Source of the DNA: Verrucomicrobiales bacterium
Lineage (GTDB): Bacteria > Verrucomicrobiota > Verrucomicrobiia > Methylacidiphilales > JAAUTS01
NCBI GenBank assembly: GCA_031256975.1
Contig: JAIRPN010000015.1
Coordinates: 152,648-216,647, forward strand
DNA length: 64,000 bases
Direction of reading: 5' to 3'
The translations under genes were made by a program, and so were the position numbers. Below, one piece after another: positions 3,227 to 60,619 of this stretch. Each line of letters opens with the position of its first letter. Position 1 is the stretch's first letter. The notes beneath the pieces were generated by a model that was not told where the DNA came from, searched no databases, and saw nothing but the letters and a program-made list of their open reading frames with translations.

Positions 3227-4585
3227 TCATAATTCCCTGATCTTCACGTTCCGAAACCACACTTCGTCGCCGTGGTCTTGCAGGAGAATATAACCCTCGG
3301 CGGCGTTGCCGAAATTGGGCCAGTTTTTGTATTTGCTGCCGGCAACCAGTTTACTCCAGGCATCGTTGTTGCGCTCGTATTCCAGCAGCTTCACGCCGTT
3401 GAGCCAGTGCTCGACGTGATTGCCATTCACGATGATCAATGCGGTGTTGAATTCCTTTTTCTTGAACGGCTTGGAATCCGGCGCGGGAATCAAATCATAC
3501 AACGCGCCGAGTTTGCGGTTGCCGTTCTTGCCGAGTTTGGCGTCGGGATGTTTTTCGTCGTCTAGAATTTGGAATTCGCAGCCGATTGCCGAGCCCGCGC
3601 CCTTGTTGAGTTCGGGATCGACGAAATATTTGACGCCGCTGTTAGCGCCCTCGGTGATTTTGAAATCCACTTTCAGCATGAAATTTTTGTACTTACGGTC
3701 GGTGATAATGTCGCCGCCGTTGGCGGATTCCTTGCCACCACTCTTCATGACTTTCAAAATACCATCGTCGATCACCCAGCCATGATCGGGGAATTTCCCG
3801 CTCTTCGCGCTGCGCCAGCCCGCATTGGTCTTGCCATCCCATAATAATTTCCAGCCTTCCTTTGCTTCGCGCGGCGAGATGGTGTTGGGAATGGCGTTGA
3901 CTTCCGGAACCTCGCTGTTAGCGGCACTGGCAAACTGTTGCACATCCGTCGTGCAAATGCGCAGGTTTTTCCAGCTGACCGTCTTGCCCTCGGCCTTGGC
4001 GTCGTCGTCGATGGCATGTACTTGCAACGCAATGAATCCGGAGGGCGTCTTGTCATCCCACAAATCGGCGCACGGGATGCCGTTCACCCAGGTGCGGATC
4101 GAAGAACCAATGGCTTCAATCCGGGCATGGTTCCATTCATTGTTCTTGAAGGCTTTCTGGGCGGGCGGGTTCACGGTTAGCGGGTAAAGCCAGCCGCGCC
4201 GCGCCTCGTCGTAAATGCCGCCGGTCCAGGCCCGTTTCGACGGGTCGATCTCAAACTGGTAACCATGCACGCGGCCTTTGTTATAATCGGGCAAACTCTC
4301 ACTGCGAATCTGCACGCCGGAGTTCAAACCGTCGTCCACCTTGAAATCAAATTCCAAAATAAAATCGTCGTAATTTTTCTCGGTCGCCAAAAAGGTGTTT
4401 GGCGTGTTCAGCTTGGAAATGCCGACAATGGCGTCGCCCTTGACCACGTATTCCGCCTCGCCGTTGAGCCGTTTCCAGCCTGACAAATCCTTGCCGTTGA
4501 ACAAGGGCTGCCACTGCGGCCCGGCCGCTAACAATGAGCTTGTTGACAATACAATGACCGCTAATGACGGGATGATTTTATTCAT
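3227..4585 (-). CDS. secreted protein with two DUF1080 (3-keto-disaccharide hydrolase-like) domains
   Basis: Signal peptide, then two repeats of the DUF1080 pattern ([11 protein letters not shown] ... [12 protein letters not shown], and a second [11 protein letters not shown] copy). Confidence 0.8.
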
Positions 4586-12639: not shown

Positions 12640-13150
12640 CGTCGTGTCCCTCGGCGGGAATCCGTTGCGCTTGCTGGCAGGAAAAGAACACGCCCATGGT
12701 TCGCGCCTTCGTCATTAGCGCCAATAACCGGTCATAATAACCCTTCCCACGCCCCAGCCGGTGGCCATTGGCGTCAAACGCCAAACCCGGGACCAGGATC
12801 AAATCCGCCGCTAATGGCGAACTTTCCCCGTGCGGTTCCAAAATTCCGAACGCTCCTGCCTGAAAATCCCCGCGAGAATGCACCACGCACAATTCCAATT
12901 CCCCACCCTTCATCCGTGGATACATCACATCCTTCCCCACCATCAGCGCCGCATCAAGCAGCGATGAAATGTCCGGCTCCGATGCCAACGGTGAAAACAA
13001 GGCCACCGACCCGGCTTCCCGCCACGCCAATGACGAAGTGATGCGGCCGACAATCCCAGTCGAGGCGGCTATGCGGATTTCAGCGCCAATGGCGAACAAT
13101 TTCTCCCGCATCTCCCGCCGCATAAGCCTCTTCTGTTCCGCCACATCCAT
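12584..13150 (-). CDS. 5-formyltetrahydrofolate cyclo-ligase
   Basis: LVPGLAFDANGHRLGRGKGYYDR motif typical of MTHFS/YgfA. Confidence 0.85.
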   Translation of the reverse strand: MDVAEQKRLMRREMREKLFAIGAEIRIAASTGIVGRITSSLAWREAGSVALFSPLASEPDISSLLDAALMVGKDVMYPRMKGGELELCVVHSRGDFQAGAFGILEPHGESSPLAADLILVPGLAFDANGHRLGRGKGYYDRLLALMTKARTMGVFFSCQQAQRIPAEGHDVRLDCVATEERLDVFARP

Positions 13151-42930: not shown

Positions 42931-44070
42931 ATGGAAATCCTCGTGGTAGTCTTGTTGATCCTCGTGCTGCTGTCATTGGCGGGAGTGCTGTGGCTGGTCT
43001 CGCGGTTGGCGCCCAGCCTGCAAAGCAGCCAGGGACAGCAACTCGCCGAACTGCGCGAATTGCTGCAAAAAAGCCTCGGCGACCAGAAAAGTGATTTCCG
43101 CGACTTCAATTCCGCTAACAGCGAACTGTTACGCAAAAGCATCCAGGACGCCCTGACCAACCAGTCGCTGGTGATGGAGAAGCGTTTCGAATCCCTGCAA
43201 AACCAGACCGAGCAGCGCCTGCAGGAAATCCGCGCCAACGTCGAACGCCGTCTGCAGGAAAACCTGGAACAAAACTTCTCCGCATTCAAGGACATGACCA
43301 AGAGCCTTGGCGATTTGAAATCCAGCGCCGACCAGATGTTGAAAGTCAGCCAGCAGGTCGGCGAACTCAACCAGATCCTCGGTTCGCCGAAATTGCAGGG
43401 CAACTTCGGCGAGGCCGAACTGGAACGGCTGTTGGCAGACATTCTTCCGCAAGGCGCCTACGAATTGCAGCCCCGCCTGGCGGAAGGCTGCCAGCCCGAC
43501 GCCACCATCCGCATCAAGGACCTGCGCTTGTGCATCGACTCCAAATTCCCCAAGGACCGCATCGCCGCGCTGCTCGACGCCGCTAACGACGAAGTGAGCA
43601 AGGAAACCGCGCGCAAGGAACTCGCCTCCGTCATCAAGCTAATGGCCAGTGACATTTCGAAAAAATATGTCCGTCCCGAACTCGGCACCACCGACCAGGC
43701 CTTCCTGTTCGTGCCAAGTGAAAGCCTGTATTACGAGATCCTGAAACTGCCCGAACTCACCGAGCATTGTCGCAAGGTCAAGGTTAGCGTCGTTTCGCCG
43801 AACACCCTGGCCTCCACGCTTTATGCCGTGGCACTGGCCTTCCGCGGTTACGAAATGCAGGAAAACGCCAAGGCCCTGTTGCGCAGCATTCAGGACATGG
43901 ACAAGCACTTCCAGAACTTTCGCAAGGACTTCGCCAACATCGGCCAACGCATCCGCCAGGCGCAGGACGACTACGAAAAGGCCGGCCGTGATCTTGACCG
44001 CTTCGACAAGACCATCACCAAGCTCCGCGACGGCGAAAGCCAGCTCGGGTTGGAAGAAAAACCGGATTAA
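42931..44070 (+). CDS. rmuC: DNA recombination protein RmuC
   Basis: N-terminal TM helix, long coiled-coil, then the RmuC nuclease-like C-terminal domain (FLFVPSESLYYE...VSPNTL). Confidence 0.85.
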   Translation: MEILVVVLLILVLLSLAGVLWLVSRLAPSLQSSQGQQLAELRELLQKSLGDQKSDFRDFNSANSELLRKSIQDALTNQSLVMEKRFESLQNQTEQRLQEIRANVERRLQENLEQNFSAFKDMTKSLGDLKSSADQMLKVSQQVGELNQILGSPKLQGNFGEAELERLLADILPQGAYELQPRLAEGCQPDATIRIKDLRLCIDSKFPKDRIAALLDAANDEVSKETARKELASVIKLMASDISKKYVRPELGTTDQAFLFVPSESLYYEILKLPELTEHCRKVKVSVVSPNTLASTLYAVALAFRGYEMQENAKALLRSIQDMDKHFQNFRKDFANIGQRIRQAQDDYEKAGRDLDRFDKTITKLRDGESQLGLEEKPD

Positions 44071-44554
44071 ACGCAGAGACGCGGAGAACGCGGAGTTTTA
44101 TTTTGCCAGCCGCGTTTTCAAATCCGCGATGAAAGCGTCCCGGTCCTTTGGTGAAACCAGCGTGAGGATTTTACCGTTGGTGCCGGTGACTTTGACGCGC
44201 TTGATCGACAGTGCGGGAGAGCTGAGCGGATTGTAAGTTTTCCCGGCGTCATGAATTTTCTCCAGCGGAATGGTTTGCTTGATTAGCCCACACTTGATGA
44301 TTAGCGCCTGATTTGTCAACGTGTAATGGCACGGCACCGCCAGCAAGGCAATGACAACACCAACAAGCAAGCCGCTCAGCATCAAGATTTTGTCACCAAT
44401 ACAGGCACCGCTAATGATCAGCGCTGCCGGCACTCCCGCCAAAATGAGTGCCAGCCACCAGTCTACTGCGGAATAATATCTCTTTTCCATTTTCCCTTCG
44501 CCATTAGCGGTTAATTTCAAAAAAACTCCGCGTCCTCCGCGCCTCTGCGGTGAA
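44071..44554 (-). mobile_element. inverted-repeat-bounded single-gene cassette (PH-domain passenger)
   Basis: Arms are at 44071-44100 (ACGCAGAGACGCGGAGAACGCGGAGTTTTA) and 44521-44554 (reverse complement TTCACCGCAGAGGCGCGGAGGACGCGGAGTTTTT). The same arms flank 51304-51743. The cassette fills the rmuC/tpl intergenic space exactly. Confidence 0.6.
44098..44490 (-). CDS. membrane protein with bacterial PH domain (bPH/DUF1200-like)
   Basis: Start taken at MEKRYY (ATG at 44490). Two TM helices, then YTLTNQALIIKCGLIKQTIPLEKI...SPALSIKRVKV...LVSPKDRDAFIADL, typical of bacterial PH-domain proteins. The stop lies inside the repeat arm. Confidence 0.65.
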   Translation of the reverse strand: MEKRYYSAVDWWLALILAGVPAALIISGACIGDKILMLSGLLVGVVIALLAVPCHYTLTNQALIIKCGLIKQTIPLEKIHDAGKTYNPLSSPALSIKRVKVTGTNGKILTLVSPKDRDAFIADLKTRLAK

Positions 44555-44560
44555 AGATTC

Positions 44561-46072
44561 TTACAAACTATCGCCGAAATCCTGGCGGAACTTGGCGGCG
44601 AGTTTTTGCGGCCAGTCGCTGTTGGCGGCGAGTCTGCCGTTGAAGAAACGCAGCACCGGCGGTTCCTCGACGAAATGAATGCCACCGATGAGCCCGCGAT
44701 TCTGATAGAGCCAGTTCAAACGGTCGGCGACATATTGCGTCTGCGACAGCGTGAACACGCGACGCGGGAACGCTAACCGCAATAATTCCGCGTCAGCCAT
44801 CACGTCATTGCCGTTAGCGTCGCGCACGCTGGAAACGGTGCCGCGCTCCATGCCGCGCGCGCCGGAGGCGATGAAAAATGCCGCCGCCAAGGCTCCCGCC
44901 GGATAGTCCTTCTGCTCCACGTGCGGCAGGAAGTTCATCGCATCGACATGGCAACCCAGGCCGCCCGCCGGTGTGACCACAGGAATGCCGTATTCTTCCA
45001 GCTTGCGAACCAGGTACTCGATGAATGACGGGCTTTGCGAAATGACATTCTCGTCGGTGGTCTCGCGCAAGCCGACGGCCATGGATTCGATTTCACGGAC
45101 GCTAATGCCGCCGTAGGTGAGAAATCCTTCGTACAGCACGACAAGGTTTTTCATCTGGTCGAAATACTCCTTGCGATTGGTGCAAATGCCGCCGCCGCGC
45201 GAGGAGCTGACCTTGCGTGCCGAGAAGTACACGATGTCGGCGAGGTCGCACATTTCGCGCAGGATGACGCTAATGCTGGAATCCTTGAATTCGTCCTCGC
45301 GCTGTTTGACAAAGTAGGCGTTTTCACCGATCAGGCTGGCATCCAGGATCAGCATGATCTTGTGTTCGTCGGCGATCTTGCGCACCTCCCGCATATTGGC
45401 GATGGAGAACGGCTGGCCGCCGATCAGGTTAGTCGAGGCTTCCATGCGGATGAACGGAATCTTCGCCGTACCATGCTTCGCGATTAGCGCCTTCAACTTG
45501 TTGATGTCGATATTGCCCTTGAACGGATTGACACTCTTGACCTGCAAGGCGTCGTCGGTGAGAATTTCCACAATCTTACCGCCATTGCGGTCAATGTGCG
45601 CCAATGTGGTGGTGAAGTGGTAATTCATCGGAACCACGCTGTCGGGTTTCACGAAGGTTTGCGACAGGATATTCTCGCAGGCGCGCCCCTGATGCGCGGG
45701 CAACAGGTACTTTTTACCAAACACTTCCTCAACGGCCGATTGCAGGCGGTAGAAACTCTGCGACCCGGCATAGGCGTCGTCCGCCTGCAGCATCGCTGCG
45801 GTCTGGTTATCGCTCATCGCATTGGTGCCGGAATCGGTCAACATGTCCAGATAGACATCCTTCGTCCCCAGCTGGAAGGTATTAAACCCGGCCTCCTGAA
45901 TCGCCGCTAACCGCCGCTCGACGGGAACCAGGTTAAGTTTTTGCACGACACGGACTTTGTGCAATTCCAATGGAATATCCTCGCCGCTAAAAAACTTAAC
46001 GGCACGCTTGGGGGTAGGTGCTACTTTCATGTTAAAGGGATCAATTTTCTTGATCGCGGCTACTAATGTCAA
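44561..46072 (-). CDS. beta-eliminating lyase, tyrosine phenol-lyase/tryptophanase family
   Basis: LTDSGTNAMSD, AYAGS, PAHQGRACE and the PLP-Lys region SARKV. The DSGTNAMSD motif is closer to TPL than to TnaA. An alternative start is the ATG at 46030. Confidence 0.85.
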   Translation of the reverse strand: MTLVAAIKKIDPFNMKVAPTPKRAVKFFSGEDIPLELHKVRVVQKLNLVPVERRLAAIQEAGFNTFQLGTKDVYLDMLTDSGTNAMSDNQTAAMLQADDAYAGSQSFYRLQSAVEEVFGKKYLLPAHQGRACENILSQTFVKPDSVVPMNYHFTTTLAHIDRNGGKIVEILTDDALQVKSVNPFKGNIDINKLKALIAKHGTAKIPFIRMEASTNLIGGQPFSIANMREVRKIADEHKIMLILDASLIGENAYFVKQREDEFKDSSISVILREMCDLADIVYFSARKVSSSRGGGICTNRKEYFDQMKNLVVLYEGFLTYGGISVREIESMAVGLRETTDENVISQSPSFIEYLVRKLEEYGIPVVTPAGGLGCHVDAMNFLPHVEQKDYPAGALAAAFFIASGARGMERGTVSSVRDANGNDVMADAELLRLAFPRRVFTLSQTQYVADRLNWLYQNRGLIGGIHFVEEPPVLRFFNGRLAANSDWPQKLAAKFRQDFGDSL

Positions 46073-46152: not shown

Positions 46153-46965
46153 GTGCCTGAATTACCAGAAGTCGAAACCACCCGTCGCGGCATTGAACCG
46201 CACTTGAGCGGGCAGCATATCCTGAGCGTTAGCGTGCGCCAGACGCAATTACGTTGGCCAATTCCGGCCGAAATCATCCGTCTGAAAAACCAGCTGGTCA
46301 TTAGCGTCGGTCGCCGAGCCAAATACCTGCTGGTCGAGCTGCCCAAGGGCTGGATCATCATCCACCTCGGCATGAGCGGCACGATCCGCGTGCTGCCGGA
46401 AAAATTGCCGGCCGGAAAACACGACCACGTCGATCTCCACCTCTCCAGTGGCAAAGTATTGCGCTATACCGACCCGCGCCGCTTCGGTTGTTGGTTGTGG
46501 ACCATCAACGCACCCGCTAACCACAAGCTTCTGGCCAATCTCGGCCCCGAGCCACTAACCACGAACTTTTCCGCAGAATACCTGTTTCGCCAATCACGCG
46601 GCAAAAACACCTTGGTCAAACCTTGGCTGATGGACAACAAAGTCGTGGTCGGCGTCGGCAATATCTACGCCAGCGAATCATTATTCCGCGCAGGCATCTC
46701 GCCCAAGCGTCGCGCCAAGTCGCTAACCCCGGACGAATGCAAAAAAATCGTCATTAGCGTCAAAAAAGTGCTGGAACTGGCGATCAAAAACGGCGGCACC
46801 ACCATCAGTGACTTCCTCAGCGCCGAAGGCAAACCCGGTTATTTCGCCCAAAAACTGAAAGTCTACGACCGCGTCGGAGAGCCCTGTCAAAAATGCGGCA
46901 ACCCGGTTCAAAAACTGACCCAAGCCCAGCGCAGCACCTTTTTCTGCGCCCATTGCCAACGCTAA
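46153..46965 (+). CDS. mutM: formamidopyrimidine-DNA glycosylase
   Basis: N-terminal (M)[13 protein letters not shown]2TH region, C-terminal zinf finger CQKCGNPV...FFCAHCQ. GTG start. Confidence 0.95.
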
Positions 46966-48906: not shown

Positions 48907-49920
48907 ATGGCTCGTCCCTCTCCCTTAAAGAGACCTTCACAACAACTCATCACTCGGCCGCCGCTAGACCGGATGCAACGGATTTTTGCGGCACTAAAAG
49001 CGGGCAATGTGTGCGGGCGCTCGTCATTAGCGGCGGAGATCGAGGTAACGGAGAAGACCATTCAACGCGATATTGATTTTATGCGCGAGCGGTTGAATAT
49101 GCCGATTGCTTATAACCGGGCAAAGCAAAGCTACGAGTTTTCCGAGCCGATTGAAAACTTTCCAATGATTGAGTTGAGCGAATCGGAGCTGGTCGCAGTG
49201 TTCGTCGCGCAGAAGGCATTGGCGCAGTATCGTGGAACGCCGTTTGAGCATTCCCTGCGCGCGGCTTTCGAGAAGCTGACCTCCAATTTGCACGGGAAAA
49301 TCTCACTGTCGTGGGATGACTTGGACTCGCGGTTGTCCTTCCGCAATTTCGAGGCTTCGCCGCTGGATTTGAAAACCTTTCAGGCAGTCGGCGCGGCAGT
49401 CAGGAACGGCGTGTTGCTGGAATTTGATTACAAAAAGTCCGAATCGACAACCTATCAGCGCCGGGTCATCGAGCCGTATCACCTCGGCTGCGTGCAAAAC
49501 CGCTGGTATTGTTTCGGCGAGGATACCGCCAAGCGCGGCGAGATTCGCGTGTTCGTGTTGTCGCGCATGAAAAACGCCAGGTCCGGTGACCGCAAATTCA
49601 AGGCGGTACGAAAATTTTCCATCGAAAAGTATCTGCAAAACAGCTTTGGCGTCTTTAGCGGCAAGGAATCGCACAGGGTCTGCCTGTGGTTTGACGCCTT
49701 CGCCGCGCAATATGTCCGCGAACGCGCCTGGCATCCCAGCCAAAAAATCCGGGAACTCGCCAATGGTGAACTGGAATTGAGCCTGCAATTGTCCGACCTC
49801 GCGGAGATCGAGCAATGGATTCTCAGCTGGGGAGCCCACGCCAAGGCCCTGGCTCCCAGGGCGCTAATCACAAGGTTGCGGGAAACCATCCGCAAACAAG
49901 GCAACTATTACGGCTGTTGA
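48907..49920 (+). CDS. HTH-WYL-WCX transcriptional regulator (BrxR/CapW/PafBC-like architecture)
   Basis: N-terminal DeoR/HTH_11-like region (RMQRIFAALKAG...EKTIQRDIDFMRE), central WYL-type domain (RRVIEPYHLGCVQNRWYCFG...IRVFVLSRM) and a C-terminal WCX-like extension. Starts 26 nt after gene C. Confidence 0.85.
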   Translation: MARPSPLKRPSQQLITRPPLDRMQRIFAALKAGNVCGRSSLAAEIEVTEKTIQRDIDFMRERLNMPIAYNRAKQSYEFSEPIENFPMIELSESELVAVFVAQKALAQYRGTPFEHSLRAAFEKLTSNLHGKISLSWDDLDSRLSFRNFEASPLDLKTFQAVGAAVRNGVLLEFDYKKSESTTYQRRVIEPYHLGCVQNRWYCFGEDTAKRGEIRVFVLSRMKNARSGDRKFKAVRKFSIEKYLQNSFGVFSGKESHRVCLWFDAFAAQYVRERAWHPSQKIRELANGELELSLQLSDLAEIEQWILSWGAHAKALAPRALITRLRETIRKQGNYYGC

Positions 49921-49930
49921 CGGTTGAATC

Positions 49931-50143
49931 GGTTGCAAAACGCCCTGTTCCCCCTTCGGTTAAGGGTTGCAACCTGTTTGATAAAGGCTTTGTCAGGCTT
50001 GGTTATGAGCTGGTTCAGGCTTGATAAGCCTTTTATCAAGTCCGTTAAGCCTTGGTTCAATCCCAACAAGATCTTTGTCCAAGTCGGACAAAGCTTACTT
50101 CAAACTCGCCAAGGCCTTGTTCAAGCTTGAACCAAGGCTTAAC
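49931..50143. other. 213-nt element of three consecutive hairpin domains (candidate structured ncRNA or protein-binding array)
   Basis: SL1 pairs GGTTGCAA (49931-38) with TTGCAACC (49967-74) and encloses CCCTTcggttAAGGG. SL2 pairs TTGATAAAGGCTT (49978-90) with AAGCCTTTTATCAA (50026-39). SL3 is a perfect 17-bp IR, GTTAAGCCTTGGTTCAA (50044-60) with TTGAACCAAGGCTTAAC (50127-43), enclosing CTTTGTCCaagtcGGACAAAG and the palindrome GTTCAAGCTTGAAC. Confidence 0.55.
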
Positions 50144-50268
50144 CAGGCAGGAAAACCGGAAAAACCCTCCATCTTCCCCTTTGTCACGGTCAAAAAACGT
50201 TAAATTACCGTGAAATATTTTGTTTTCTTTCCACCTCGAACCCCTAATCTTTTCGCATTCACAAGCAC

Positions 50269-51303
50269 ATGAAAAAGAGCACCAAATCCAAAAAGGCCTA
50301 TGCCGCGGCCGGCGTAGACATTGACCTCGGCAACAAAGTTAAGTCCGGCATCGGCGCCCGCATCGCCTCGACCCACCGCAAAGAGGTCCTGAGCAAAATC
50401 GGCGGCTTCGGTGGCCTGTTCCGCGCGGATTTCAAGGGTTACAAGGAACCGGTGCTGGTCAGTAGCGTGGACGGCGTCGGCACCAAGCTGAAAATCGCCA
50501 CCATGCTCAACCGCCACGACACCATCGGCCAGGACTTGGTCAATCATTGCGTGAACGACATCGCCGTGGTCGGTGCGGAACCGCTGTTTTTCCTCGATTA
50601 CGTCGGCACTGGCAAACTTGAGCCGAAGACTTTCAATCAAATCCTCAGCGGCCTGGCCGTGGCTTGTAAAGAAGCCGGCTGCGCCCTCATCGGTGGTGAA
50701 ACCGCACAGATGCCCGGCATTTACCAAGGCGGGGATTATGATTTGGTCGGTTGCATTGTCGGCGTGGTGGATCGTAAGAAAGCCATCGACGGCTCAAAGA
50801 TCAAAAAAGGCGACGTGATCATCGGGTTCCCGTCCTCCGGCCTGCACACCAATGGCTACAGCCTGGCGCGTGAAATTTTGTTCAACAAACTCGGCCTCCC
50901 GGTGCAAACCCCGCTGCCCGGCAGCAAACAGTCGCTCGGCGAAGCCTTGCTGATGCCGCACATCAATTACCAGCCCTTGCTGAAGAAACTCAGCAAGAAA
51001 GTCACCTTCAAGGGCCTGTCGCACATCACCGGCGGCGGCTTCGTCGACAACATTCCGCGCATCCTGCCGAAGAACGTCGATGCCGTCATCCACGTTGGCA
51101 CTTGGCCGACCCTGCCGGTTTTCGAATTACTCGAACAAAAAGGCGGCGTCGCGCGCGAGGAACTCTACCAAGTGTTCAATATGGGCATTGGCATGGTCGC
51201 CATCGTCAGCTCCAAGGACGCCCCAAAAGTTCTGGAACACAGCAAGTCCTACATCATCGGCCAGATCGAAAAAGGCAGCTGCAAGGTGCAGTTGAAGTTT
51301 TAG
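50269..51303 (+). CDS. purM: phosphoribosylformylglycinamidine cyclo-ligase (AIR synthetase)
   Basis: YAAAGVDIDLGN, DGVGTKL and GGETAQMPG motifs. Confidence 0.95.
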   Translation: MKKSTKSKKAYAAAGVDIDLGNKVKSGIGARIASTHRKEVLSKIGGFGGLFRADFKGYKEPVLVSSVDGVGTKLKIATMLNRHDTIGQDLVNHCVNDIAVVGAEPLFFLDYVGTGKLEPKTFNQILSGLAVACKEAGCALIGGETAQMPGIYQGGDYDLVGCIVGVVDRKKAIDGSKIKKGDVIIGFPSSGLHTNGYSLAREILFNKLGLPVQTPLPGSKQSLGEALLMPHINYQPLLKKLSKKVTFKGLSHITGGGFVDNIPRILPKNVDAVIHVGTWPTLPVFELLEQKGGVAREELYQVFNMGIGMVAIVSSKDAPKVLEHSKSYIIGQIEKGSCKVQLKF

Positions 51304-51743
51304 TTCACCGCAGAGGCGCGGAGACGCGGAGTTTTATTGGATGGAGCAACTGACAGGACAGATTATTGCTTCGGCGATTGAAGTTCATCGTCATTTAGGA
51401 CCTGGGCTTCTGGAATCGACTTACGAAGAATGTTTGGCCCGAGAATTTGAACTGAAAGAGCTTCCGTTCAACCGCCAAGTGACCTTGCCAGTTACATACA
51501 AAGGACAATCTCTCGATTGTGGTTACCGCATGGATTTTGTGGTAAATGATAAGATTATCCTCGAACTAAAGGCTGTCGAAAAATTTGAACCCATTCATCA
51601 AGCCCAGTTGCTTACTTACTTGAAATTATCAAACAGACAACTCGGGTTGCTCATTAATTTTAACGTCCCCTTGTTAAAACAAGGCATCAAACGAATAGCC
51701 AACAACTATCAAACCTCTGCGTCCTCCGCGCCTCTGCGGTGAA
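51304..51743 (+). mobile_element. inverted-repeat-bounded single-gene cassette (GxxExxY passenger) inserted between purM and purH
   Basis: Arms are TTCACCGCAGAGGCGCGGAGACGCGGAGTTTTA (51304-36) and AAACCTCTGCGTCCTCCGCGCCTCTGCGGTGAA (51711-43). The cassette begins 1 nt after the purM stop and ends 10 nt before the purH ATG. Confidence 0.65.
51341..51742 (+). CDS. GxxExxY protein (PD-(D/E)XK-like small protein family)
   Basis: GPGLLESTYEECL (G-x-x-E-x-x-Y) and DFVVNDKIILELKAV, typical of the family. The last 10 codons (...TSASSAPLR) are encoded by the repeat arm. Confidence 0.85.
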   Translation: MEQLTGQIIASAIEVHRHLGPGLLESTYEECLAREFELKELPFNRQVTLPVTYKGQSLDCGYRMDFVVNDKIILELKAVEKFEPIHQAQLLTYLKLSNRQLGLLINFNVPLLKQGIKRIANNYQTSASSAPLR

Positions 51744-51753
51744 CAATAAATTT

Positions 51754-53286
51754 ATGATTAAAAATGCCCTCCTCTCCGTATCCGACAAAACCGGACTCTT
51801 GGAATTTGCCAAATTCCTGGTCTCCAAGAAAGTTCACCTGATCTCCACCGGCGGCACTGCCAAGCTGTTGCAGGAAAACGGCCTGCCGGTGCAGGAAATC
51901 TCGGATTACACCGGGTTCCCTGAAATGATGGACGGCCGCGTCAAAACCTTGCACCCGAAGGTGCATGGCGGTTTGCTGCATTTGCGCGATAACCCGGAAC
52001 ATGTCAAACAGGCGGGCGCGCATAACATCGAGCCGATCGATCTGGTGGTCGTCAATTTGTATCCCTTCGAGCAGACCCTTGCCAAGCCCGGCGTCAGTCA
52101 TGAGGTGTTGATTGAAAATATCGACATCGGCGGCCCAAGCATGCTGCGCAGCGCGTCGAAGAACTATCGCAGCGTCACCGTTATCGTCGATCCCGCCGAT
52201 TACGCCAAGGTGCAGAAGGAACTCGAGGCTAACGGCGAAACCTCGTCCGTCACTCGCGAAAAACTCGCCGCCAAGGTGTTCCGTCACACTGCCTATTACG
52301 ATTCACTAATCGCAAAATATCTGACCGGTAAAGCCGAGTCGGAAAATCCGGTACTGCAGGAAAGCGTCACCCTCAGCGGCCGCCTCGCCCAGCCTTTGCG
52401 CTACGGCGAAAACCCGATCCAAAAGGCCGGTCTCTACGGCGATTTCCACAAACATTTCCACCAGATCCACGGCAAGGAATTGTCCTACAACAATATCATC
52501 GACATTAGCGCCGCGGTGAATTTGATCCGCGAATTCGACACGCTAACACTGGCGATCCTCAAACACACCAACCCCTGCGGTGTCGGTTCGGGCAAGGACT
52601 TGCGCGAGGCCTGGGATCATGCCTATGCCACCGACAAACAAGCCCCCTTCGGCGGCATCATCGTGATGAACCGCACCCTGGATCTACCGGTTGCACAGGC
52701 TATCTCCGAAATCTTCAGCGAAGTAATTATCGCGCCGGAATTCGCTCCTGACGCCAAGGAATTGCTGATGAAGAAAAAGAATCTGCGCCTGATCGAAAAT
52801 AAATACCAATCGACTGGCGCTAATTATGATTTTCACTCCGTGCTCGGCGGCATCGTCGCGCAGGAAAGCGACAGCGCACCGGATGATGAATCCCAATGGA
52901 AAGTCGTCACCAAGCGTCAGCCCACCAACGACGAACTCGCTGCCTTACGCTTCGGTTGGAAAGTGGTCAAGCACGTCAAATCCAACGCCATCGTCTACGC
53001 CGCTAACGGCCAAACCATCGGTATCGGTGCCGGACAAATGTCACGTGTGGATTCCTCAAAGATCGCCGTCTGGAAAGCGGGCGAAGCCAAATTGTCGCTC
53101 AAGGGCAGCATCATCGCCAGCGACGCCTTCTTCCCCTTTGCTGACGGCATCCAGGCCGCCGCTGAAGCGGGGGCCATTGCCGCCATCCAGCCGGGTGGCA
53201 GCGTGCGCGACGCCGAGGTCATCGAGGCCGCCGACAAGGCCGGCATGGCAATGATCTTCACCGGCCGCCGCCACTTCCGTCATTGA
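51754..53286 (+). CDS. purH: bifunctional AICAR transformylase / IMP cyclohydrolase
   Basis: [16 protein letters not shown]-terminus, GRVKTLHP, and a C-terminal GGSVRD...[12 protein letters not shown] at 51754 preferred over the GTG at 51739. Confidence 0.95.
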
Positions 53287-60581: not shown

Positions 60582-60619
60582 AAAAGCCGCTAATGACGAG
60601 TTCGTCATTAGCGGCTTTT
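60582..60619. terminator. perfect 18-bp-arm bidirectional terminator built from the CGCTAATGACG motif
   Basis: AAAAGCCGCTAATGACGA-gt-TCGTCATTAGCGGCTTTT, with an A-run and T-run on the two sides. It lies between the convergent methyltransferase and sodA genes. Confidence 0.8.

Follow-up and report, generated by a model that had tools for sequence, protein, structure and literature searches.

What kind of unit holds a small gene between two long inverted repeats, directly behind the stop codon of a housekeeping gene? This question is raised by a stretch of 64,000 nt from a Verrucomicrobiales bacterium (assembly GCA_031256975.1, contig JAIRPN010000015.1, positions 152,648 to 216,647 of the forward strand), hereafter the window, which is also the part of the source genome that was examined. 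Here, four copies of one ~30-nt sequence, the arm, form two inverted pairs, each enclosing one small gene: a PH-domain (bPH) gene between rmuC and tpl in copy 1, and a gene of the GxxExxY family between purM and purH in copy 2. An earlier sequence-only reading had proposed that both are promoterless cassettes of one mobile unit that exploits host transcription. The analysis described below leads to a related explanation, to which we give a probability of about 0.6: the arms define small inverted-repeat elements of a widespread family, most of them hairpins and a minority with one small gene inside, with the GxxExxY protein as the likely mobiliser.

Arms at the two loci and turnover of copy 2

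Regarding copy 2, the left arm (TTCACCGCAGAGGCGCGGAGACGCGGAGTTTT, 51304-51335, plus strand) abuts the stop codon TAG of purM (51301-51303) with a gap of 0 nt, and its final GGAG stands 9 nt ahead of the ATG of the passenger gene; the right arm (CTCTGCGTCCTCCGCGCCTCTGCGGTGAA, 51715-51743, plus strand) holds the passenger stop codon TGA (51740-51742), and the ATG of purH follows 10 nt on. The inverted repeat computed at this locus (I10) covers 51295-51323 and 51724-51752, with 90% complementarity. As for copy 1, its arms are 36 nt long, 86% complementary and 416 nt apart (inverted repeat I4): the one on the rmuC side (TTAAACGCAGAGACGCGGAGAACGCGGAGTTTTATT, 44067-44102), in place also in the relative L209, contains the rmuC stop codon TAA (44068-44070), and the one on the tpl side (44519-44554, TTCACCGCAGAGGCGCGGAGGACGCGGAGTTTTTTT on the minus strand) is separated by 6 nt from the stop codon of tpl (44561-44563, minus strand). 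The arm consists of an outer TTCAC(C)...GTGAA cap and three C(G/A)C(A/G)(G/A)AG heptamers at a spacing of 8-9 nt.

Both inverted pairs were thus recovered by the repeat search where the sequence-only reading had placed them. Some of its anatomical details need correction: the passenger stop codon lies in the distal arm for the GxxExxY gene, as the TGA of the terminal GGTGAA, and at the inner edge of the arm for the bPH gene; and the distal arm is not the more diverged one in copy 2, where it differs by just one G/A and one 1-nt bulge. In the window, a 27-mer of the arm with up to three mismatches matched just 44526-44552 and 51715-51741, with 0 matches in 100 shuffles, and a 14-mer of the arm core recovered all four arms and otherwise nothing meaningful; the sharing of the arm between the two loci is non-random, none being expected by chance. 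A strain of the same species (L120, 470-505, corresponding to 44519-44560 of the window) has the arm variants TTCACC to TTCAAC and GGAG to GGGG, the former of which improves the pairing with the opposite arm (TTAAAC).

The promoter scan found no promoter-like site on the sense strand of either unit, in agreement with the proposal that they are promoterless and co-oriented behind host stop codons. Promoterless single-gene units with imperfect inverted repeats recall the gene cassettes of integrons; this origin is extremely improbable, because the anatomy already contradicts it: the arms stand on both sides of the gene instead of as a single 3' attC, the units are inserted singly between housekeeping genes, and no intI, attI or cassette array occurs in the window.

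The passenger of copy 2 (51341-51742, plus strand) encodes a protein of 133 aa that matches TIGR04256 (E=7.7e-47; 158.5 bits against a cut-off of 35, model positions 1-115 of 116) and PF13366, PDDEXK_3 (E=2.5e-45; 154.1 bits against a cut-off of 22). In an alignment from four phyla the residues G22, E25, Y28, D65, E75, K77, Q89 and Y93 are invariant, and the protein is predicted to have the PD-(D/E)XK nuclease fold, with a D...ExK...QxxxY core, and to act as a nuclease; it also has a weak similarity to Cas4. Its open reading frame (ORF) runs through the right arm, so that the protein ends with the tail ...TSASSAPLR*, the stop codon being the TGA of the terminal GGTGAA. The exact-protein look-up returned no record of this protein, the Protein Data Bank had no sequence match, and the family profile found nothing in viral contigs; an AlphaFold model made from the single sequence had a pLDDT (predicted local distance difference test) of 43 and was unusable. 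Upstream lies purM (50269-51303, plus strand, with AIRS and AIRS_C domains) and downstream, co-oriented, purH (51754-53286, plus strand, by profile match).

Five further relatives were reached through homologues of PurH, and their purM-purH junctions differ. The arrangement arm-GxxExxY-arm found in the window is present in L211, of the same species (PurH 97.5% identical in amino acids), in L214 (85%) and in L220/L221, of a second clade (81%); in L212/L213 (88%) the site is instead empty, reading ...TTT TGA AAACC ATG ATT AAA... with a 5-nt spacer; finally, L215 (80%) has a 77-nt spacer with a small hairpin of arm-like CCGCGAAG units. Judged from these junctions, the purM-purH unit is gained or lost whole, exactly between stop and start codon, because the exact empty site of L212/L213 stands against the filled site of the other relatives. 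Polymorphic empty sites, which the sequence-only reading had suggested looking for, exist at this junction; of target-site duplications, suggested alongside them, the comparison of filled and empty purM-purH junctions revealed none, nor any other footprint of transposition.

The passenger also diverges faster than its surroundings. Between the window and L211 it is 73% identical, compared with 97.5% for PurM and PurH; at the nucleotide level the arms and the first ~45 nt are 93-98% identical, and the value drops to 63-77% in the interior of the passenger. This profile is consistent with replacement of the allele through recombination with a paralogue, the conserved ends serving as anchors. In each of the four relatives with the gene, as in a Sphingomonas locus discussed below, the ORF passes through the 3' arm and ends with the TGA or TAA contained in the terminal GGTGAA or GGTAA, 2-16 nt short of the following gene's start codon. 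A scan of metagenomes with PurM gave best matches that were 62% identical and without synteny, of no use for empty sites. In L215, a DUF2283/DUF4258 pair lies between rmuC and purM (1066-1520); small mobile gene pairs gather in this neighbourhood.

The arm family and its GxxExxY cargo

Arms outside the source species were collected with the exact 18-mer CACCGCAGAGGCGCGGAG, which occurs in more than 118 listed stretches against ~17 that chance would produce in 596 Gb of uniform sequence; as the loci were picked by this 18-mer, the frequencies drawn from them are biased. Among the matches listed, well over ten bacterial phyla carry the 18-mer, including Acidobacteriota, Bacteroidota, Planctomycetota, Chloroflexota, Cyanobacteria, Gemmatimonadota, Nitrospinota, Elusimicrobiota, Spirochaetota and Verrucomicrobiota, along with several proteobacterial classes. 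It is nearly always preceded by TT and followed by (N0-3)CGCAGAG, and because these flanks are conserved the matches are homologous and not due to chance. Neither the arms of the window nor those of 20 arm-bearing loci fit any Rfam family, and a full-text search of the literature found no occurrence of the long arm sequences. An intrinsic (Rho-independent) terminator was considered and judged unlikely, for the T-run stands before the stem and the A-run after it, as in TTTTTTCACC...GGTGAAAAAAA of L082; the terminator scan, too, had no match at the arms.

Among the arm-flanked ORFs of other genomes, GxxExxY is the sole family that recurs. The ~800 kb of arm-selected loci contain three homologues, and all three have arms on both sides: in Prosthecobacter the gene lies between an inverted pair (TTTTTTCACCGC...gene...GCGGTGAAAAAAA); in an Anaerolineaceae genome, likewise with an inverted pair, the cassette is complete and has more arm sequences directly on either side; in a Spirochaete the arms are in direct and not inverted orientation. 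A search of plasmid and chromid records made with the GxxExxY protein only, and hence free from the bias of the arm sequence, returned eight loci. Three of the four closest homologues are bracketed by inverted arms, whose heptamers are lineage-specific and nonetheless matched on both sides: Bacteroides finegoldii, between radA and the gene of an FAD protein (TTCACCACAGAGGACGCAGAGGACACGGAG / CTCTGTGACCTCTGTGTCCTCTGTGGTGAA, CACAGAG type); Bernardetia, between ade and manC (again CACAGAG type); and Sphingomonas, between fabD and fabG (TTCACGCGAAGGCGCGAGGACGCGAAG / CGCGTCTTCGCGGCTTCGCGTGAA, CGCGAAG type). The fourth, from Gemmatirosa, is followed by a complete hairpin. Distant homologues (38-45% identity) have other repeats, which are inverted in Treponema (CACGGATTC) and direct in Fusobacteria, Prevotella and Persicobacter. 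It looks, in this small sample, as if the GxxExxY protein and its flanking repeat co-evolve.

In 9/9 independent loci, the GxxExxY gene and both of its neighbours have the same orientation. The other small genes flanked by arms, some with N-termini like those of recR and gatC, are ordinary ones that have an independent hairpin on either side, and one cassette from a Planctomycete contains an unclassified and possibly decayed ORF on the reverse strand. The family is large, with 22,084 clusters at 50% identity (E<=1e-3), and its genes are presumably multi-copy per genome; almost no literature on GxxExxY was found in full text, the name occurring in three papers that do not deal with repeats. Some predicted GxxExxY proteins bear head or tail peptides encoded by the arms, such as ...SSASSPPLR and MHRRGAEDAEG.... 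The best-scoring relatives (P0251-P0259) have 266-295 aa and two tandem GxxExxY domains, some with C-termini that are encoded by the arms. The GxxExxY nuclease is probably the native cargo of the arm elements, and this link would give an abundant, uncharacterised family a concrete biology. In practice, the arms are translated at the termini of some predicted proteins, and they may break assemblies. That the same arms enclose an unrelated passenger, the point stressed by the sequence-only reading, is true of the window; elsewhere no bPH gene was seen within arms, and just GxxExxY recurs.

The mobilising activity, which the sequence-only reading had regarded as missing, need not be so, given that the cargo that recurs is a predicted nuclease of the PD-(D/E)XK type. 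The same reading was right that no transposase or integrase is encoded in the window: neither these families nor recombinases, and no Y1 transposase, were found among its ~60 long ORFs. A conventional transposase encoded elsewhere is what a second explanation calls for, in which the elements are non-autonomous, like miniature inverted-repeat transposable elements (MITEs), and GxxExxY and bPH are mere cargo. The terminal inverted repeats of ~30 bp are of the right kind, near-identical hairpins occur within one genome (L086/L100, 95%), and 64 kb of the genome were inspected; however, there is no target-site duplication between filled and empty sites, and the transposase would have to be as widespread as the arms, beside which none was found in ~800 kb, with GxxExxY as the sole recurrent neighbor. 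We consider MITE-like elements an improbable solution.

The bPH gene of copy 1 and the gene-less hairpins

In copy 1, rmuC (42931-44070, plus strand; Pfam RmuC, E=1.8e-54), with its stop codon inside the rmuC-side arm, converges with tpl (44561-46030, minus strand), a Beta_elim_lyase gene of the tryptophanase/tyrosine phenol-lyase family (PF01212, E=2.2e-52) with a 100% match, named tryptophanase, in a Verrucomicrobiales metagenome-assembled genome. Between them, the bPH gene (44098-44490, minus strand) encodes a 130-aa membrane protein with a bPH_4 domain at residues 54-127 (PF06713, E=1.6e-19; 70.2 bits against a cut-off of 22.9); tpl is upstream of it and co-oriented, and its 5' leader (44491-44518, minus strand) has one copy of the motif CGCTAATG/CATTAGCG. 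The exact-protein look-up found this bPH protein recorded in the same context alone.

Two relatives carry a homologous gene beside tpl. In L209 the order is ABC transporter, adenylate kinase, rmuC, arm, bPH, arm and tpl; bPH is 64% identical to that of the window and its ORF is inverted (71% identity in reverse), with collinear flanks (76-83%) and with the arms at the same positions as the best-conserved part (92%). The breakpoints of the inversion can be placed to within ~35 nt of each arm's inner edge and no more finely, in a zone that contains a second small palindrome of the motif CCGCTAATGG. L210 (bPH 59% identical) is a contig of 830 nt that ends inside tpl and can be read on one side alone; here, 4 nt separate the stop codons of bPH and tpl, with no arm between them, and a higB/higA pair lies directly upstream of bPH (1-385). 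Because this bPH gene adjoins tpl with no arm in between, the arms and the gene they enclose seem separable and need not travel together.

In sum, bPH adjoins tpl in three lineages and is bracketed by arms in two of these, in one of which it is flipped. Since it stays beside tpl in three lineages and no arm-enclosed bPH gene was seen elsewhere, it looks like a long-term resident that was bracketed by arms and then flipped, not a proven travelling passenger; the cassette model is supported for the GxxExxY copy, and for the bPH copy in part alone. The unrelated passenger is weak evidence for a general cargo system, and a resident gene that was bracketed and flipped explains it better. An empty tpl-rmuC site was sought through tpl homologues, and the nearest relatives (~85% in amino acids) were non-syntenic. 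In a Puniceicoccales relative (L201, 9600-9700), a degenerate arm-like hairpin (ACCACGGAGCGCGGAGG ... CGTCGTGGTGAA) is found ~150 nt downstream of a non-syntenic tpl.

Between arms that stay in place, bPH points in opposite directions in L209 and the window; this may suggest a phase-variable switch, in which a site-specific invertase flips the gene between the arms, and a co-oriented gene is found upstream of bPH in either orientation. Against it, no invertase is encoded nearby, and a promoter-like element is lacking both within the segment and beside it; the two orientations are fixed differences between genomes that are ~76% identical and not variants of one population, three records of the source species having the same orientation; and the breakpoints are not placeable within the arms. 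We thus hold an invertible switch to be very unlikely.

Regarding the arms of other genomes, an inverted partner was clear for 74 of 126, with loops of mostly 10-260 nt and a few of 445-1871 nt. The 63 hairpins with both flanking ORFs oriented, by crude ORF calls, comprise 41 between co-oriented, 21 between convergent and 1 between divergent ORFs; the same distribution, with unidirectional and convergent ORFs, has been reported for repetitive extragenic palindromic sequences (REPs; PMC3733652). The loops are unrelated between genomes and repeated within a genome (95% identity for L086/L100), and the arms are conserved; because the loops are unrelated, conservation across phyla concerns the arm alone and not the element as a whole. 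A DNA sequence of ~30 nt conserved in this way, around unrelated loops, implies a conserved factor that recognises it. In L046 (1040-1440 and 2730-2890), arm hairpins enclose a second widespread intergenic repeat (GTCATTGCGAG...), so that repeat families are nested.

Several observations weigh against the explanation preferred here. Foremost, the arm pairs in other genomes are mostly passenger-less hairpins downstream of genes, and no GxxExxY remnants were found in their loops; since most pairs are gene-less and the loops bear no trace of the gene, the hairpins could be the primary element, one that serves the host, with the nuclease gene as a lodger. For the same reason, the idea that the hairpins are deletion derivatives of GxxExxY cassettes, as MITEs arise by deletion, was rejected. 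To this are added the biased choice of loci by the 18-mer, the lack of a transposition footprint at purM-purH and the arm-less junction of L210. The pattern of purM-purH is, moreover, ambiguous on the tree, which would allow either a single ancient gain followed by precise losses or gains that occurred repeatedly. Finally, if the pairing of the arms mattered in RNA, G.U pairs might be expected to exceed A.C pairs on the sense strand: in oriented cassettes counted by hand they number 11 against 5, from biased loci, and 80 hairpins had no such bias, with the choice of loci again biased. The arms are, besides, not specific to cassettes: elsewhere most pairs are gene-less, which is half of what the sequence-only reading had named as contrary to its own model, and at purM-purH arms and gene do form a unit.

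These points add up to a distinct alternative, that the arms are REP-like palindromes serving the host as stabilisers of 3' ends or insulators of operons, and that small selfish genes, and now and then resident ones, sit in their harmless loops with no dedicated mobilisation. It would account for the passenger-less majority, for the position downstream of genes, where the ORFs on the two sides are co-oriented or convergent, as in REPs (PMC3733652), for the lineage-specific loops without GxxExxY remnants, and for the bPH gene that adjoins tpl in L210 with no arm between. It does not sit well with other facts: all the close GxxExxY homologues examined adjoin arms, with an inverted pair in 5/7 other loci and, in the remaining 2/7, copies of the same orientation on both sides (Spirochaete) or a downstream hairpin (Gemmatirosa); distant homologues have other flanking repeats, which suggests co-evolution; arms and gene are present or absent together at purM-purH; and conservation over ~30 nt across phyla is unexpected of a purely structural element, REPs being mostly lineage-specific. 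Host-serving palindromes are therefore a serious alternative, although an unlikely one.

Proposed mechanism and comparison with known systems

The best reading is that the units are selfish cassettes, expressed by read-through, that resemble the intervening sequences (IVSs) of 23S rRNA and the pairs formed by REP doublets (REPINs) and REP-associated tyrosine transposases (RAYTs). Copy 2 would be the canonical member, filling a purM-purH spacer that is otherwise of 5 nt, and it would be expressed by read-through from the purM-purH transcript. In the RNA, the long-range pairing of the arms around the ORF, anticipated by the sequence-only reading, is predicted as a helix of ~29 bp in both the minimum free energy and the centroid folds (z = -6.3 and -3.3). 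Such a helix would loop the passenger out of the transcript, as in the 23S rRNA IVSs, and would bring the host stop and start codons together again; it would probably be cut by RNase III, by analogy with the IVS of Coxiella, whose 444 nt comprise one small sense ORF and a 28-bp stem interrupted by one mismatch and one bulge (PMC4990558). The passenger may use the closing GGAG of the 5' arm, which precedes the ATG by 5-9 nt in the purM-purH cassettes, as its ribosome-binding site, and its coupling to the translation of the downstream gene may be regained by reading through the 3' arm.

In the DNA, the arms would be substrates of recombination: the relatives show the gain or precise loss of units, the swap of passenger alleles and the inversion of the enclosed segment. 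Copy 1 would be a derived case, whose arms bracket the resident bPH gene between convergent rmuC and tpl; as these converge, either orientation of bPH would receive read-through transcription. As for mobilisation, the GxxExxY nuclease is the most likely candidate to mobilise or maintain arms and hairpins, in the manner of RAYTs with REPINs or of a free-standing homing endonuclease. A bolder version, in which the GxxExxY gene and its heptamer arms form an unrecognised minimal autonomous element of ~440 bp, present in many phyla, whose nuclease recognises the arm hairpin and copies its gene into dispersed hairpins or maintains these, and whose helix lets the unit be cut or looped out from operon transcripts, is at present doubtful, though worth stating. 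If it were true, it would amount to an intervening sequence for protein-coding operons, harmless between essential and translationally coupled genes. The link of GxxExxY to a conserved inverted repeat would, for its part, offer one explanation for small selfish genes in essential operons (purM-purH, fabD-fabG) without polar damage, and possibly a bridge between the ORF-bearing IVSs of 23S rRNA and REP-like hairpins.

Among known systems, the closest in architecture is the ORF-bearing 23S rRNA IVS, the closest in population structure is REPIN/RAYT, and the closest in behaviour at a single locus is the free-standing homing endonuclease. Like the IVSs of Leptospira, Coxiella, Xanthomonas and Brucella, copy 2 (440 nt) has a stem of ~29 bp with one G.U and one bulge and a single small sense ORF, and it lies within a host transcription unit; IVSs, too, are sporadic among relatives and regarded as selfish. 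Unlike them, the present units lie between protein-coding genes and not in helix 9, 25 or 45, Rfam detecting no rRNA; their cargo is PDDEXK_3 or bPH_4 instead of the S23p four-helix-bundle protein; and excision by RNase III, proven for IVSs, is here only deduced.

REPINs and RAYTs share with the arms the inverted doublets that form hairpins of ~80-300 nt downstream of genes, between unidirectional or convergent ORFs, and the combination of many passenger-less copies with a nuclease-type gene flanked by repeats (PMC3116915, PMC3337134, PMC3733652). However, the arms start with TTCAC(C) and end with GTGAA, without a GTAG or CGTC tag; the gene between the repeats encodes a PD-(D/E)XK protein of ~125 aa and not an HUH/Y1 transposase; RAYTs are single-copy; and the arm is common to many phyla, in contrast to REPINs, which are confined to lineages and inherited vertically. 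Free-standing homing endonuclease genes, such as seg and mob of the T-even phages, are also small nuclease genes set exactly between conserved genes, present or absent in close relatives, with clean boundaries and a divergence faster than that of their flanks; they have, instead, one cognate locus, while GxxExxY is found at purM-purH, fabD-fabG, radA and ade with its own inverted repeats, and cleavage by GxxExxY is predicted from sequence alone. MITEs and small insertion sequences, finally, have terminal inverted repeats, a small size and dispersed copies within a genome; they differ in the target-site duplication, which was not seen here, and the strong preference for sites just after stop codons would be unusual for them. 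The units thus lack a hallmark of each class: the host site and cargo of IVSs, the tag and the Y1 transposase of REP/RAYT, the target-site duplication of MITEs, and the attC and IntI of integrons.

Two further observations concern the surroundings of the units. The intergenic region upstream of purM (49920-50269, 350 nt) contains nested long hairpins, for example GTTAAGCCTTGGTTCAA...TTGAACCAAGGCTTAAC (hairpin 50043-50144); these give weak miRNA-precursor-like Rfam matches on both strands, with no known RNA family at threshold. As for the motif of the bPH leader, the 8-mer CATTAGCG/CGCTAATG is the commonest of the window, with 47 copies against ~2 expected (for example at 44503-44514, 12805-12815, 46749-46759 and 60586-60615), and of the hexamer TTAGCG/CGCTAA, for which base composition would predict ~27 copies, 140 are present. 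The motif is found on both strands and also within genes, and it is dense in L209, where it forms a palindrome beside the bPH ORF (4411-4443); the 8-mer may be a genome-wide motif of the uptake-signal or Chi type.

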